From the NCBI GenBank assembly GCA_964010765.1, contig CAXGMD010000063.1, positions 1 through 20,897 on the forward strand: a stretch of DNA of 20,897 bases, given 5' to 3'. Origin of the DNA: an uncultured bacterium (GTDB taxonomy: Bacteria > SAR324 > NAC60-12). This document shows, piece by piece, positions 1 to 19,447 of this stretch. The notes under the pieces are model-generated. The model searched no databases. It was not told where the DNA came from and saw only the letters and a program-made list of their open reading frames with translations. The position numbers were made by a program, and so were the translations under genes. Each line of letters starts with the position of its first letter. Within the stretch, counting starts at the first letter, position 1.

Positions 1-61
1 CTGCGGTGTTGGTCAAGTGGCGCAGGGCGGTCATGGATGCAATGTTGTGATTCACTCGCAT
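1..61 (-). CDS. fliC: Flagellin, N-terminal fragment (continues beyond left edge)
   Basis: Reverse strand from ATG at 61 reads MRVNHNIASMTALRHLTNTA, a typical flagellin N-terminus (M-R-I/V-N-H/T-N-I-A-S/A). SD AGGAG at 68-72 (minus). Not in the ORF track. Confidence 0.88.
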   Translation of the reverse strand, partial: MRVNHNIASMTALRHLTNTA

Positions 62-505
62 GGCTAACTCCTAAAGCTCATGATTGATTCGGCTGGACCG
101 AATATGGCAGTCAATTGCCAGATTTAAAAAAATCGTTGTTATTCAAATTATTTAAATAGATTATAATTAATCAGATTTTCTCTGATAAATTATATTTTTC
201 AGAGAAAAATGCTTTTGATCGTTTCGCTTCAGGCTGCTCTCGTCAACCGATTCTGCAAAACAGGTCGAAGCAGACAGTTAGCAATGATCTGTAGGAAGCT
301 ATGCTTGAAAATTTATTTGCCAAAGCAAACAAATATCTGAGCCAGGCTGAGACTCTGTTCAGCAGAATAATTCCTACACAGATTTGCGTAGGCTTCACAA
401 ATCCTATTGTCTAGCAAACACAACAGCGTGTTGTCTGCAATTAGATAGGGCTAAGTCTCAGGTAACTTCCTTTGCTCTATTTAAATAATCGAAGAACCCT
501 CAAAC

Positions 506-523
506 TACTCTGGAATGGATCGC
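506..523 (+). repeat. Left arm of perfect 18-bp inverted repeat TACTCTGGAATGGATCGC
   Basis: Exact reverse complement of 1400-1417; extends to 22 bp with one mismatch (502-523/1400-1421). Confidence 0.95.
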
Positions 524-1399
524 AAGAGGTACTGCCTTCGATCAAGCACAAACAAATTGATTTCTGTTCACCAAGAAGAGATTCAGATCAATTGGCAATT
601 TCCCGGATTGCTAATTAGGTATCTACAGTTCTTCAAAACGAACAGAACGAGCTGCTTTATTCTTCCAAGAAAACAGAAGAATTCTGCTCAAAGCGAGACT
701 GAAGTATATTATAAACAGTCTCCCATTCAGCAGGCAGGATTATCGTGTGCGAGATAGCCCTGCAAACTTATATCGTGATTTTATGCCTACCAGGATGAAA
801 CTTGGCAAAGTGTTTCTGAGCGGCTTCACTTCTTTGACAAGATCTGCTTCTACAGAAGCTGTATGTACTTCACAAATGCAGATCACCTAGCCAGAGTTGG
901 GCAACTTTGCTTTATAAAAATGTTTCAGGACAGAATTTAGTGTGCCAATGCTTTCAGCTATACAGGCGAAAGCCACTGTCATAACCTTGTTGCTGCGAAC
1001 TGATCAAAGCTGCTTGTGCCAAGGCCCTTTGGCGTTCAGCACAGAAAAATTAGCTATTGATCTTCAAAGCAAAGTAGCTGCGAATGTCCGTGCCAGAGCC
1101 ATTCGGCTAGCAGGACGCGGTGAACCGATCTAGTTCAGCATTGCAGAGACGGGTAGCGTTTGCCATTGGCCAAACAAGCTTCAAGAAGCGATGTTGGTTC
1201 CGTCAGGAAGCGGGTTCATCCCGGGTGCTAGCAGGAAACTCTGTTAGCACGTTTCGGCAGCTGAGATCTTTGCTCAAGCTTGCCTTGGCATTTTAGTTCA
1301 AAGAACGAAGACAGTTTTTGGTAGTTTCAAACTACCTGTTTGCTAGAGATCATCCCTAATACTGATGGGAATTCAGTTTTTTCGGGGCATCTCAAGCAG

Positions 1400-1417
1400 G
1401 CGATCCATTCCAGAGTA
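1400..1417 (-). repeat. Right arm of perfect 18-bp inverted repeat (GCGATCCATTCCAGAGTA on +)
   Basis: Exact reverse complement of 506-523. Confidence 0.95.
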
Positions 1418-1432
1418 CTTTCTTAAATAACA

Positions 1433-1459
1433 ATATCGGCAGAAGGCCGAATTTCTTTA
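1433..1459 (-). promoter_or_regulatory. Sigma-28 (FliA) promoter, proximal
   Basis: Minus strand reads TAAA-N15-GCCGATAT (consensus TAAA-N15-GCCGATAA), oriented toward flagellin. Confidence 0.8.
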
Positions 1460-1502: not shown

Positions 1503-1529
1503 TTATCGGCAGAGAGGGCAGAGACTTTA
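1503..1529 (-). promoter_or_regulatory. Sigma-28 (FliA) promoter, distal
   Basis: Minus strand reads TAAAGTCT...GCCGATAA with exact 15-nt spacing after TAAA, a perfect consensus, 70 bp from the proximal copy. Confidence 0.85.
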
Positions 1530-1548: not shown

Positions 1549-2100
1549 TCAGAGGAAATGTGGATGGCGGATTTGGACGAGTTCCCCTGGCCACTGCAGG
1601 TACTGTTGCCAGCGGGGGTCAGGGACTGTGATCTGCATTTGCTTGACAGCATGCACCATCTCCCAGTAGTCAAGTTCTCGCGGCTCACGTAGCGGTCGAA
1701 TATCAGTTCGTTGTCCCTTACGGCGATTGCATCCCCGGCAGCAAGTGACGATGTTCTCCCAGGAATTCCGCCCCCCATGGCTCCGAGGCAGCACATGGTC
1801 ACAGGTCAGTTCAATCACAGGAAAACTCTTCCCACAATACTGACAACGATGCAGATCCCGAATAAAAATATTGCGCTTGGTGAAATTAACGCGGAGCCGG
1901 GCCCGATGGTATTCATGGAGAATCACCACGCTGGGAATCTTGATGCGTGTTGAAGGAGAACGGCATTCGTGAGCATACCATTCCAGCACATCAATCTTGC
2001 CAAGATAGTAAGATTTGATACCCCACTTCCAGCTCACCACGCTGAGTGGATTCCAGCGATAGGGCTGGACATCAGCGTTTAGAACCAGAACTTCTCCCAT
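1549..2100 (-). CDS. HNH endonuclease (McrA-like/HNH_5 family, zinc-binding)
   Basis: N-terminal VLVLNA...PL, IPSVV, RD.HRCQYCG, TCDHVLPRSHGG..SWENIVTCC..CN.RKG; SD GGAG upstream. Confidence 0.92.
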   Translation of the reverse strand: MGEVLVLNADVQPYRWNPLSVVSWKWGIKSYYLGKIDVLEWYAHECRSPSTRIKIPSVVILHEYHRARLRVNFTKRNIFIRDLHRCQYCGKSFPVIELTCDHVLPRSHGGRNSWENIVTCCRGCNRRKGQRTDIRPLREPRELDYWEMVHAVKQMQITVPDPRWQQYLQWPGELVQIRHPHFL

Positions 2101-16912: not shown

Positions 16913-17047
16913 ATGAAGCGAACCTACCAACCCAACAATCGTCGGCGTAAAATGAAGCACGGCTTCCGTGCACGGATGGCGACAAAAAATGGTCAAGCCA
17001 TCATCAAGCGACGACGAGCCAAGGGACGCAAGCGACTGTCCGCTTAG
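16913..17047 (+). CDS. rpmH: 50S ribosomal protein L34
   Basis: Manual translation [44 protein letters not shown] (44 aa); below the ORF-track cutoff. Confidence 0.98.
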
Positions 17048-17409
17048 TGGATTCAAGGCGTTATCCAAAGCGGGTACGCCTTTGCGGTCGGAGTGAGGTG
17101 GCCCGAATTTTTCAGCATGGGAACTACCGAGGATTAGGACTAATCAGCATCAAGTACCTTACTAGTTCTAGTTCGGAGAGCCGCTTTCTGGTAACGGTGA
17201 GTAAGCGCGTAGGACATGCACCTTTGCGGAATCGACTGAAACGTTTGCTTCGAGAAGCAATTCGCCATCACCGACACCAAATCTGCCAGCCTGTTAATGT
17301 CTGCTTCATGATCACTAAAAAACCACAACGCCCCGTGGAGCAGGCTTACATTGAGAGTTCGGTTCACCAAGCTTTCCGATTTCTTAACGCCCAGACTGCT
17401 GAAGATTAA
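17047..17409 (+). CDS. rnpA: Ribonuclease P protein component
   Basis: [29 protein letters not shown] (RNR motif); located between rpmH and yidD. Confidence 0.95.
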
Positions 17410-17414
17410 CCAGC

Positions 17415-17708
17415 ATGGACGTCCCCTCTGCATCCTATCCCGAGCTATCACCCTCAAGATTACTGTCCCGAGGATTGATCGCCTGTATCAAGCTTTACCA
17501 GTATTGTCTATCTCCGCTTTTACCTAGATCATGCCGCTTCTACCCAAGCTGTTCCAACTATGCACTGGAAGCTCTTCAACAGCATGGTTTTGGCAAAGGT
17601 GGCTGGCTGGCGCTTCGAAGAATTCTTTGCTGTCATCCTCTTCATCCTGGAGGATACGACCCTGTTCCTGATAAGCAAACCGAATCCACTAAATCTTTAA
17701 ACCTCTGA
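17415..17708 (+). CDS. yidD: Membrane protein insertion efficiency factor
   Basis: [23 protein letters not shown]...[15 protein letters not shown]. Confidence 0.96.
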
Positions 17709-17725
17709 TCCGGCCTGAAATCACT

Positions 17726-19447
17726 ATGGAGAAACAAACCCTTCTAGCAATCGCTCTGTCGGCTGCTGTGCTGATTGGCTGGCAGTTCCTCTTTCCGCCG
17801 CCGCCGCCGCCAACTTCGACGACCGTACCCGCAGCCACTAACTCATCTCCCACTATAGTGAGAGATGAGAATGAATCAGCTGTTTCTGAAAACTCTGTCT
17901 CTCCACTGAGTGCTAGCCTACCAAGTGTGGATGAAAGCCAACCCGCCAAACAAGTTGTTGTCGAAACTCCGCATTACCGATTGACCTTTAATACTAGTGG
18001 TGCAGTTGCTGAGAGCCTGTTGCTTCAAGAGTACCAGCACAACAAGGGACGACTGACTCTCAGCACATGGTTTCCCTATCTCACATCATTTTTAGGGGCT
18101 AGTAACGAAGAAATTGTCACAGAGGACAACAAGGTGAACATGTTCGCCAACGACCTCGATAATGTGCATCAATTTGCTGTCGAATTGGAGGACGATCCCC
18201 AGCTTTCTGCCCGACTCCAACGTACTGTTTTCTCTGAATCACAAGGAGATCTACTTCTTGAAGAAGGAACAGCCTCCCTACAATTCGTTTCTCCTGTTGT
18301 CGACGGACTGCAGTTGATCAAGACTTTCGAGTTTTTCGCTGATTCCTTCCAGATAGGCTATCAGGTACAGGTGATCAACCGCTCTCAGGAAGCAAAGTCT
18401 TTGCGGATTCGCCACGTCTTTGGAGAAGGCCGCGTTCAGAACGATGACTATCAACAACAAGGGGCTCACACAGGGCCAGTATACTTTGTTGAAGAAAGCG
18501 TGGAGACTGAAACAAACAGCGATGTCCAACAAGAATTTCAAGTGGCAAACGCTGAGTGGTTCGGGGTGGAAGATCAGTTCTTCCTAAATGCAGTTCGAGC
18601 TGAATCACCAATCCGCTTCGCCTACTTCCGTTCTGCTGCCGCTCTGGTGGATCAACGAACTATGCTGCGCCCGTACTTTGGGGCACGCCTGCCATTGGTC
18701 AGCCTACAACCAGATCGACAGATTGAATCAAATTTTCGCGCCTACTTTGGGCCAAAGTTAGAAGACGAAATGCTGAAATTTGGTCACAATCTGCGTGAAT
18801 CAAATGCAATGTTCTTGGAAACGCTGGCGGCACCACTACTGACGCTACTGCACTGGATTTTTGGCTATGTTGGCAACTATGGCATCGCCATTATTATCCT
18901 GACCATCATCGTCCGGTTGCTGCTGTTCCCTTTAACCTACAAGGGAATGAAGGGGATGAAACGCATGCAGCAGCTGGCGCCACGAATGAAAAAAATTCAG
19001 GAGAAGTACAAGGATAACCGAGAAAAGTTAAACCAAGAGATGATGGAATTGTACCGCAAGAACAAAGTCAACCCACTGGGAGGCTGCTTGCCGCTACTTC
19101 TACAAATTCCTGTCTTCATCGCTCTCTACAGCGCTCTCTCTGGTGCTGTTGAACTGCGCCATGCGCCCTTCATGCTTTGGCTCTCGGACATGTCTGCTCC
19201 CGATGGCCTTGGAATCACGCCAATTCTGATGGGGGTGAGTCTCTACTTCCAACAAAAACTAACTCCCACAGCTGCTACGATGGATCCCATGCAGCAGAAG
19301 ATCATGCAGTATCTCCCGCTGGTATTCACCATTTTTACTTTCACTTTCCCTGCTGGACTGACACTCTACTGGTTGACCAGTAACTTGCTTTCCATTGCGC
19401 AACAGCAATTTCTCAACCGAATCAAGACCCCAGAACTTCAGGACTAG
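17726..19447 (+). CDS. yidC: Membrane protein insertase YidC
   Basis: N-terminal TM, periplasmic domain, GNYGIAIIILTIIVR, NPLGGCLP.L.QIPVF, PAGLTLYW..SN. Confidence 0.97.
   Translation: MEKQTLLAIALSAAVLIGWQFLFPPPPPPTSTTVPAATNSSPTIVRDENESAVSENSVSPLSASLPSVDESQPAKQVVVETPHYRLTFNTSGAVAESLLLQEYQHNKGRLTLSTWFPYLTSFLGASNEEIVTEDNKVNMFANDLDNVHQFAVELEDDPQLSARLQRTVFSESQGDLLLEEGTASLQFVSPVVDGLQLIKTFEFFADSFQIGYQVQVINRSQEAKSLRIRHVFGEGRVQNDDYQQQGAHTGPVYFVEESVETETNSDVQQEFQVANAEWFGVEDQFFLNAVRAESPIRFAYFRSAAALVDQRTMLRPYFGARLPLVSLQPDRQIESNFRAYFGPKLEDEMLKFGHNLRESNAMFLETLAAPLLTLLHWIFGYVGNYGIAIIILTIIVRLLLFPLTYKGMKGMKRMQQLAPRMKKIQEKYKDNREKLNQEMMELYRKNKVNPLGGCLPLLLQIPVFIALYSALSGAVELRHAPFMLWLSDMSAPDGLGITPILMGVSLYFQQKLTPTAATMDPMQQKIMQYLPLVFTIFTFTFPAGLTLYWLTSNLLSIAQQQFLNRIKTPELQD

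Follow-up and report, generated by a model that had tools for sequence, protein, structure and literature searches.

We propose, with moderate confidence, that a folded block at positions 506–1417 of a SAR324 contig is the main domain of a structured leader of about 1.37 kb, driven by sigma-28 on the minus strand and belonging to a flagellin gene. SAR324 is an abundant uncultured deep-ocean lineage. The window, by which we mean the whole 20,897-nt stretch of DNA analysed, is contig C63 of its own genome (G000), a 3.86-Mb assembly of 266 contigs that is 92% complete. A first-pass annotation had described the block as a candidate large ncRNA read on the plus strand; the feature is larger than the coordinates given then, its promoter matches reaching out to 1529 and its folded leader down to 62. 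The parts referred to below, all on the minus strand, are:

1–61, minus strand: start of the flagellin gene, first 20 codons (ATG at 61–59; the gene runs off the window), read from the sequence.
62–501, minus strand: distal leader, a folded stretch (z −4.78) linking the closed domain to the flagellin start.
502–523, minus strand: closing helix, 3′ arm (inverted repeat).
524–1399, minus strand: interior of the closed domain, 876 nt with many hairpins (z-scores, covariation, no codon periodicity).
1221–1339, minus strand: core of four hairpins with the highest conservation (mean column identity 97% over 15 sequences), the basis of covariance model R1.
1400–1421, minus strand: closing helix, 5′ arm in the minus-strand RNA (inverted repeat).
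1433–1459, minus strand: predicted sigma-28-type promoter P2, TAAA-N15-GCCGATAT (exact consensus match).
1503–1529, minus strand: predicted sigma-28 (FliA)-type promoter P1, TAAA-N15-GCCGATAA (exact consensus match).
1549–2100, minus strand: HNH endonuclease gene, a conserved upstream neighbour outside the RNA (Pfam HNH_5, 1.6e-17).
3891–2146, minus strand: PilB/GspE-type ATPase gene, upstream of the HNH gene.

Gene order on the minus strand runs from the PilB/GspE-type ATPase through the HNH endonuclease and the spacer to flagellin, and the spacer (1548–62, 1.49 kb, between the HNH gene and flagellin) is without a credible ORF. Within it the parts follow one another as P1, 70 nt, P2, 5′ arm, interior, 3′ arm, 440 nt and flagellin. 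The distal leader, those last 440 nt, ends in two conserved hairpins, an AGGAG Shine-Dalgarno sequence (72–68) and the ATG. The HNH gene also adjoins the corresponding spacer in a further genome, G001. The remainder of the window's flagellin gene was found on contig C261 of G000, and a full orthologue of this 533-aa flagellin in genome G002 carries both Flagellin_N and Flagellin_C (Pfam); on its longer contig, G002 has two further flagellin-like genes downstream of it. Flagellin paralogs are abundant in the G000 genome.

The block is closed by an end-to-end helix that is perfect over 18 bp (506–523/1400–1417), as the first-pass annotation had it, and extends to 22 nt at 95% (502–523/1400–1421), with 876 nt separating the arms. 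The helix comprises 21 pairs, 20 of which never vary in 14 distinct sequences while the remaining one goes from G-C to G-U on the minus strand. Both arms were found in seven of the nine genomes of the genus; the other two assemblies have completeness values of 67% and 80%. When the 50 nt nearest the promoters were paired with all remaining leader sequence, the best duplex reached an energy of −46.9 in the window and −50.2 in G001, far better than shuffles (−33.6±3.4 and −28.0±2.8, respectively). An invariant stalk beside a fast-evolving interior also fits a DNA repeat recognised by a protein or a recombinase, a point to which we return. A 14-nt perfect repeat at 873–886/1628–1641 was set aside, being present only in G000 and without compensation in relatives.

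Folding of the enclosed sequence exceeds that of shuffled sequence on both strands, as the z-scores proposed in the first-pass annotation bear out. The minimum free energy (MFE) of the 914-nt unit is −305.5 on the minus strand against −254.9±6.4 for dinucleotide shuffles (z −7.89, 0 of 20 shuffles as good), and −309.2 on the plus strand against −258.1±12.0 (z −4.25, again 0 of 20). Five coding stretches of 914 nt from the same window gave z-scores of −0.88 to +0.96, so the richness in structure is real and not a property of genome composition. The 13 interior and closing helices listed earlier all proved complementary, 12 of them without mismatch; 1078–1086/1139–1146 pairs with two mismatches. 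Six of the 13 recur in the consensus structure of 15 sequences.

The block is non-coding. It had been described as poor in ORFs, and indeed its longest ORF from a start codon is 80 aa, its longest stop-free stretch 91 codons and its frames hold 7–20 stops each. Variable columns fall evenly over the three phases (93/94/87, p=0.85), that is, without codon periodicity, where the adjoining HNH gene shows strong periodicity (substitutions 56/5/8 by codon phase, p=3e-16). None of five internal ORFs gave a Pfam match, and a hidden small protein was rejected on these two grounds. A decayed flagellin gene was likewise rejected, since tblastn with three flagellins, a test suggested at the outset, gave only chance-level matches: the best was E=1.7 in this spacer and E=0.055 over seven spacers (this one and six orthologous ones). 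Nor does the block belong to a repeat family, a MITE or a non-autonomous transposon, as it occurs once in G000 (collapsed repeats being possible with 266 contigs) and no direct repeats abut the arms in the sequence, leaving no target-site duplication next to the terminal repeats.

No known RNA family accounts for the block. Rfam 15, a comparison that the first-pass annotation had called for, gave 0 matches at the gathering threshold across the whole window; the six matches with E<=10 in 100–1600 scored 16–23 bits against thresholds of 40–80, all to eukaryotic or viral families and at chance level, and 20 orthologous upstream loci gave no Rfam match. A CsrA-binding leader or CsrB-like sponge was rejected because GGA motifs are not enriched on either strand (minus, 9 observed against 10.5±3.1 expected; plus, 10 against 11.3±3.3). 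In full-text literature searches no paper combined SAR324 with terms for non-coding RNA. As far as Rfam 15 and those searches reach, the element is undescribed.

The block is conserved among close relatives. BLASTN found full-length homologs in five of the eight other genomes of the genus and in none of 52 genomes outside it. Covariance model R1 (1221–1339, 119 nt) recovered the window's own genome and the same five genomes (133–155 bits) and, with Infernal's stricter filters, none of 36 genomes from the rest of the family. Scanning metagenome contigs for exact 21-mers returned 11 loci, of which ten are homologs; the eleventh, L018, was a chance 21-mer match and was left out of all alignments. 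Identity to the window over 495–1430 is 81.4–99.9%, and homologs detectable by these sequence searches are restricted to one genus. Conservation is uneven: the interior evolves fast in 549–1100 and is conserved in 1190–1340. Per 100 columns, 13–15 are variable in 1191–1340, 15–17 at both ends and 35–55 across 549–700 and 844–1090, compared with 5–19 in the neighbouring genes, and the core at 1190–1340 is as conserved as coding DNA.

A minus-strand alignment of 15 sequences (14 distinct) gave an RNAalifold consensus of 244 pairs, with 97.8% of cells paired. Both partners have changed in 17 of these pairs, where column shuffles give 9.1±2.1 (a count as high in 1 of 500) and slid partners 0–9; counted by cells, the figure is 34 against 12.1±2.9 (0 of 500 as high). 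The six genomes give 20 such pairs against 11.8±2.3 (0 of 500 as high; slid controls 0–5). Counts of ‘further standard pair types’ were not above shuffles (442 of 500 as high in the six genomes, 93 of 500 in the 15 sequences). The best-covarying helices lie at about 582–610, 1225–1250 and 653–677. Covariation in homologs, looked for as evidence of structure, thus stands above both kinds of control, but because the sequences are close (81–99.9% identity) it offers modest support for the structure, not proof.

Could the block be a functionless relic, a decayed gene or MITE-like remnant whose folding is incidental? Its terminal inverted repeats, an interior with up to 55 variable columns per 100 beside genes with 5–19, and a length near that of a flagellin gene, with flagellin paralogs so numerous in this genome, would all suit such an origin. 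The block is single-copy, though, and carries no flagellin or Pfam signal, its 1190–1340 core matches coding DNA in conservation, its pairing has been maintained through change, and z-scores of −4 to −8 recur in the non-homologous spacers of other genera described below. On this balance we consider a relic highly improbable.

Two exact matches to the sigma-28 pattern TAAA-N15-GCCGATAW occur in the window (0 in 100 shuffles). These are P1 and P2, both directed into the block and onward to the flagellin start at 61, with some 12 nt separating the end of the P2 −10 element from the closing helix. Across six genomes P1 differs at a single spacer base and nowhere else; P2 is conserved across the genus, with a G-to-A change in the −10 element of G008 and an improvement to GCCGATAA in G005. 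FliA is encoded in the genome, FliA_WhiG being found twice over its cut-off. The whole 3.86-Mb genome holds five matches to the pattern, and the other three lie upstream of non-flagellar genes. By our own estimate about three such sites would be expected genome-wide by chance, so that the motif alone is weak elsewhere and the weight falls on this locus and on its conservation. The sequence thus probably holds two promoters of FliA-dependent type upstream of flagellin. For 11 flagellin paralog starts, the available upstream sequence contained no strict sigma-28 site, which leaves the distal pair as the only candidate flagellar promoter seen among them.

The minus strand is probably the transcribed one, opposite to the first proposal, as indicated by the sigma-28 sites, by a one-sided substitution asymmetry and by consensus folding energy. 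When only one partner of a Watson-Crick pair undergoes a transition, the result is G-U as read on one strand but A-C as read on its complement. Counting only pairs that are predicted for both strands, such one-sided changes produce G-U on the minus strand in 25 columns and on the plus strand in 10 in the six genomes (p=0.017), and in 12 and 2 columns, respectively, in the 15 sequences (p=0.013). RNAalifold energies for 15 sequences are −237.05 for the minus strand and −192.1 for the mirrored plus strand; for six sequences they are −263.1 for minus and −252.3 or −250.0 for plus.

A large ncRNA on the plus strand, as originally proposed, can draw on the single-sequence MFE, which is slightly lower on plus (−309.2 against −305.5, with z −4.25) and to that extent counts against the minus strand, and on the stems listed earlier, which hold four G-U pairs on plus and none on minus, having been picked from the plus-strand sequence. 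The G-U tally given for plus is not upheld: scored by itself over the pairs that both strands share, G000 has five G-U on minus and two on plus. On the plus strand we found no promoter-like site directed into the block, the sigma-28 sites lying on minus, and both consensus folding and the substitution asymmetry favour minus. A plus-strand RNA is accordingly very improbable in our assessment. What survives of the original idea of a large ncRNA linked to flagellin is a conserved, non-coding, structured element of about 0.9 kb with some covariation; the plus strand is not supported, and a free-standing class is doubtful.

The element is present in RNA libraries. Twenty-four runs are listed for 62–1560, of which 23 hold part of it, and marine or salt-marsh metatranscriptomes on record make up 17 runs, with 33–69% of sampled words. 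The four runs examined consist of assembled contigs and so carry information on neither strand nor RNA ends. Run X1 has contigs (0–2 differences) over 1–557, 528–616 and 720–1348. The first of these is unbroken, continues past the window's left end and joins the flagellin start to the 3′ arm. Positions 1349–2756 have no RNA contigs in X1 and were left out of the evidence. One contig in X4 (1016–2439) and one in X7 (1187–1686) run past the promoters and enter the HNH gene, which leaves room for DNA carry-over or read-through. The check for a transcript envisaged earlier therefore established presence in RNA libraries, but through contigs that carry no strand or ends and do not prove a defined transcript.

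These contigs bear on whether the block belongs to the flagellin message or is a trans-acting minus-strand ncRNA of its own, a late flagellar-class RNA that would start at the sigma-28 promoters and have its 3′ end, by termination or trimming, near 500, with flagellin transcribed separately. A free-standing RNA would agree with a domain that forms a closed unit bounded by a 21-bp helix, and with X1 contig depths on the element (39–104) that equal or exceed those of neighbouring genes, a weak measure. It could also make use of two minus-strand sites between domain and gene, a weak terminator-like hairpin at 392–373 and a sigma-70-like site at 188–160 (10/12 matches). In a 7-sequence alignment, however, conservation of these two sites is poor or absent, RNAalifold finds no conserved hairpin with a U-run in the distal leader (7 sequences), and no conserved terminator or proximal promoter was found between the domain and the flagellin gene. 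The X1 contig that spans from the flagellin start to 557, and the standing of the distal pair as the sole candidate flagellar promoter among the 11 paralog starts, likewise tell against separate transcription. We regard an independent trans-acting RNA as unlikely; a free-standing ncRNA class is doubtful because the anatomy and the X1 contig fit a giant mRNA leader at least as well.

The corresponding locus of G001, a diverged member of the genus, is informative about which parts of the leader are constrained. Its flagellin orthologue has 72% identity, and the unit was missed by both BLASTN and the covariance model. Two sigma-28 matches lie 1862 and 1777 nt before the flagellin ATG, and an 18-bp arm follows the second promoter by about 13 nt, with a perfect partner 1.23 kb downstream. 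The helix is that of the window with one compensatory change, G-C to A-U. The G001 interior has no detectable similarity to the window's interior on either strand and no ORF longer than 108 aa, and the unit folds with z −4.81. G001 thus keeps the promoters and the helix and swaps the interior, which indicates that promoters and stalk are constrained while the interior is replaceable yet highly folded. An nhmmer profile of the 15 sequences, run against 20 orthologous upstream regions, matched only the two helix arms of G001.

Kept arms around a replaced interior are also what a DNA switch might leave behind, and perfect, invariant inverted repeats between the promoter and the ORF of a flagellar gene invite that comparison. 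In such a scheme of flagellar phase variation a recombinase would act at the 21–22-bp repeats, and flagellin expression would be toggled by inverting the 0.9 kb between promoter and gene. A flagellar switch of this kind is described in Clostridioides difficile, where the invertible element measures 154 bp and its 21-bp inverted repeats lie in the flgB 5′ UTR (PMC5386303). The likeness lies in inverted repeats of 21–22 bp in a flagellar leader downstream of a promoter; the differences are a segment of 876 bp rather than 154 bp, about six times longer, the absence of an inverted copy and of a nearby recombinase, and the RNA-type substitution patterns of the block. Of 14 other sequences reaching from one arm to the other, every one is collinear with the window, without inversion; four runs contain no strand-changing joints (contigs drop rare variants); and a domain scan of 16 ORFs in the window yielded no recombinase, the scope being the window. 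The minus-strand G-U bias and the internal compensatory changes would, moreover, go unexplained. An invertible switch consequently appears quite improbable.

Beyond the genus, orthologous flagellins have 53–60% identity. Strict sigma-28 matches stand 971–1566 nt before the orthologous flagellin ATG at eight of 19 loci, in genera g2, g4, g9 and g12, and the g2 loci have tandem sigma-28 pairs about 77 nt apart; loci of g7, g8, g10 and g11 gave no strict match. When the spacers of different genera were compared by all-against-all BLASTN, only the upstream coding genes aligned, along with one 33-nt piece common to G020 and to the window near 175–207. The closing helix was not recovered in other genera, where no perfect long-range repeat of at least 13 nt was found and the best promoter-proximal duplex was no better than shuffles in all eight loci. 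A search of 88 genomes of the phylum for the helix-arm pattern gave, outside the genus and in G004, single one-mismatch matches, that of G004 being unrelated. The spacers of other genera are strongly folded on the flagellin strand, with z-scores of −5.48 (g12), −6.42 (g9), −6.45 (g11) and −2.54 (g2). In four within-genus alignments the consensus energy was lower for sense than for antisense every time, at −233/−219, −291/−221, −99/−69 and −114/−74 (sense/antisense), from poor alignments with 31–74% invariant columns. A strongly folded spacer of 1–1.6 kb before this flagellin is thus a family trait, and the stalk-closed domain is the form that the folded spacer takes in this genus.

A minus-strand flagellin leader suggests the following course of events, in which we infer the start sites, co-transcription with flagellin, processing and function. 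Transcription would run on the minus strand from the tandem FliA promoters P1 and P2 into the 533-aa flagellin gene. The RNA a few nucleotides past the P2 start would pair with sequence about 0.9 kb downstream, and the invariant 21-bp stalk so formed would close a multi-hairpin domain and bury the 5′ end. Going by the anatomy, the stalk may shield the 5′ end of a late flagellar mRNA from 5′-end-dependent decay. The flagellin message is described as a very highly expressed late mRNA. A second, purely conjectural option is that RNase III might cut the stalk as it does in rRNA precursors. Such a cut would free the folded domain, roughly 0.9 kb of RNA, and the flagellin mRNA would retain a leader of 440 nt with a new 5′ end; the life-time or the translation of that mRNA would be set in this way. 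The genome encodes RNase III (RNaseIII TIGR02191, 248 bits, over cut-off), and the stalk has 21 pairs where an uninterrupted duplex of about 20 bp or more was looked for. A more far-reaching version strikes us as rather unlikely. In it, SAR324 sigma-28 flagellin transcripts would be headed by a new giant RNA module, in this genus a domain of 0.9–1.3 kb held by the 21-bp stalk; RNase III would free from it a stable ncRNA, present in abundance and active in late flagellar assembly, and by the same cut would decide what becomes of the flagellin mRNA. The equally folded spacers of other genera, 1–1.6 kb long, would be fast-evolving versions of the same module.

In rRNA precursors, RNase III cleaves stalks, long duplexes formed by the sequences on either side of a large folded RNA. 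The SAR324 stalk resembles them as a long perfect duplex conserved more strictly than its contents, in a genome with an RNase III gene; it differs in that its cargo is not rRNA and that cleavage here would be read from the anatomy. Flagellin leaders under CsrA/FliW control, such as those of Bacillus subtilis hag and Campylobacter jejuni flaA, are reportedly short, with GGA hairpins and a sigma-28/SigD-type promoter. The SAR324 leader shares with them a promoter of that type and a structured leader before flagellin, but is about 1.4 kb long and not enriched in GGA. The first-pass annotation had likened the block to large ‘ornate’ bacterial ncRNAs. These include GOLLD, ROOL, OLE, HEARO and raiA, and like them the block extends over hundreds of nucleotides, folds into many hairpins with a long-range closing helix, is non-coding and is found in environmental RNA libraries. 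Unlike them it has no covariance-model match (the comparison being made through Rfam only), lies between sigma-28 promoters and a flagellin gene and so is likely part of an mRNA, and is conserved in sequence genus-wide only, with an interior that can be replaced, as in G001.

Large, highly structured bacterial RNAs are rare; most come from environmental data and are still without a function. The significance of the present one is limited by a narrow sequence family, modest covariation and contig-level RNA data without strand. Its clear regulatory address, with two FliA-type promoters on one side and flagellin on the other, makes hypotheses about it testable, and numerous RNA libraries from marine and salt-marsh samples contain it. 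Should the leader prove real, the control of flagellin in SAR324 differs from that exerted elsewhere through short CsrA, riboswitch or inverton leaders. The long spacers of the family, not alignable between genera yet all strongly folded, would exemplify selection on RNA architecture rather than on sequence.

The promoters P1 (1503-1529) and P2 (1433-1459), both minus-strand matches to the sigma-28 (FliA) type, are adjoined upstream by a gene for a stand-alone HNH endonuclease of 183 aa (1549-2100), and this neighbour is kept across the genus, including its diverged member (G001), while the genes in this position differ in other genera. In one of these (G009), a 234-aa ORF that by eye may resemble a transcription regulator lies upstream of the spacer, the stretch preceding the orthologous flagellin. 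Within P2 itself, the spacer and -10 region (1436-1450, minus strand) are predicted to be able to pair as a G+C-rich hairpin of 5 bp with a U-rich run after it; in P1-initiated transcripts this would resemble a small attenuator or terminator placed immediately upstream of the stalk that closes the element.

A 14-nt inverted repeat (873-886/1628-1641) has one arm within the element's interior and the other at the HNH gene's 3' end. The repeat is perfect in the window's own genome (G000) alone and relatives show no compensating changes, so it has probably arisen by chance. In the proximal leader, a 33-nt piece (175-207) carrying the palindrome TCTCTGA...TCAGAGA shows 91% identity to a piece in a genome of another genus (G020, locus L061); it lies 114-146 nt upstream of the ATG in the window and 383-415 nt upstream of the orthologous flagellin ATG in G020. 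Apart from this piece, no similarity between spacers of different genera was found.

In a relative with a longer contig (G002), the leader's flagellin is the first gene of a tandem flagellin-like array (locus L028, G002:C484:5500-9300), in the order:

Flagellin, 533 aa
Divergent flagellin-like protein, 477 aa
Third flagellin-like gene

Searches of whole genomes gave up to 33 flagellin matches per SAR324 family genome, and it is probably because flagellin genes are both tandem and numerous that contigs are interrupted at the left edge of the window. Elsewhere in the window, 17047-19447 holds the gene pair rnpA (RNase P protein) and yidC, which lies close to the replication origin in many bacteria.

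For 11 starts of flagellin paralogs in G000 (contigs C123, C141, C187, C233, C257 and C6), the available upstream sequence (147-2000 nt) contained no strict sigma-28 site, and these paralogs may use a different class of promoter.
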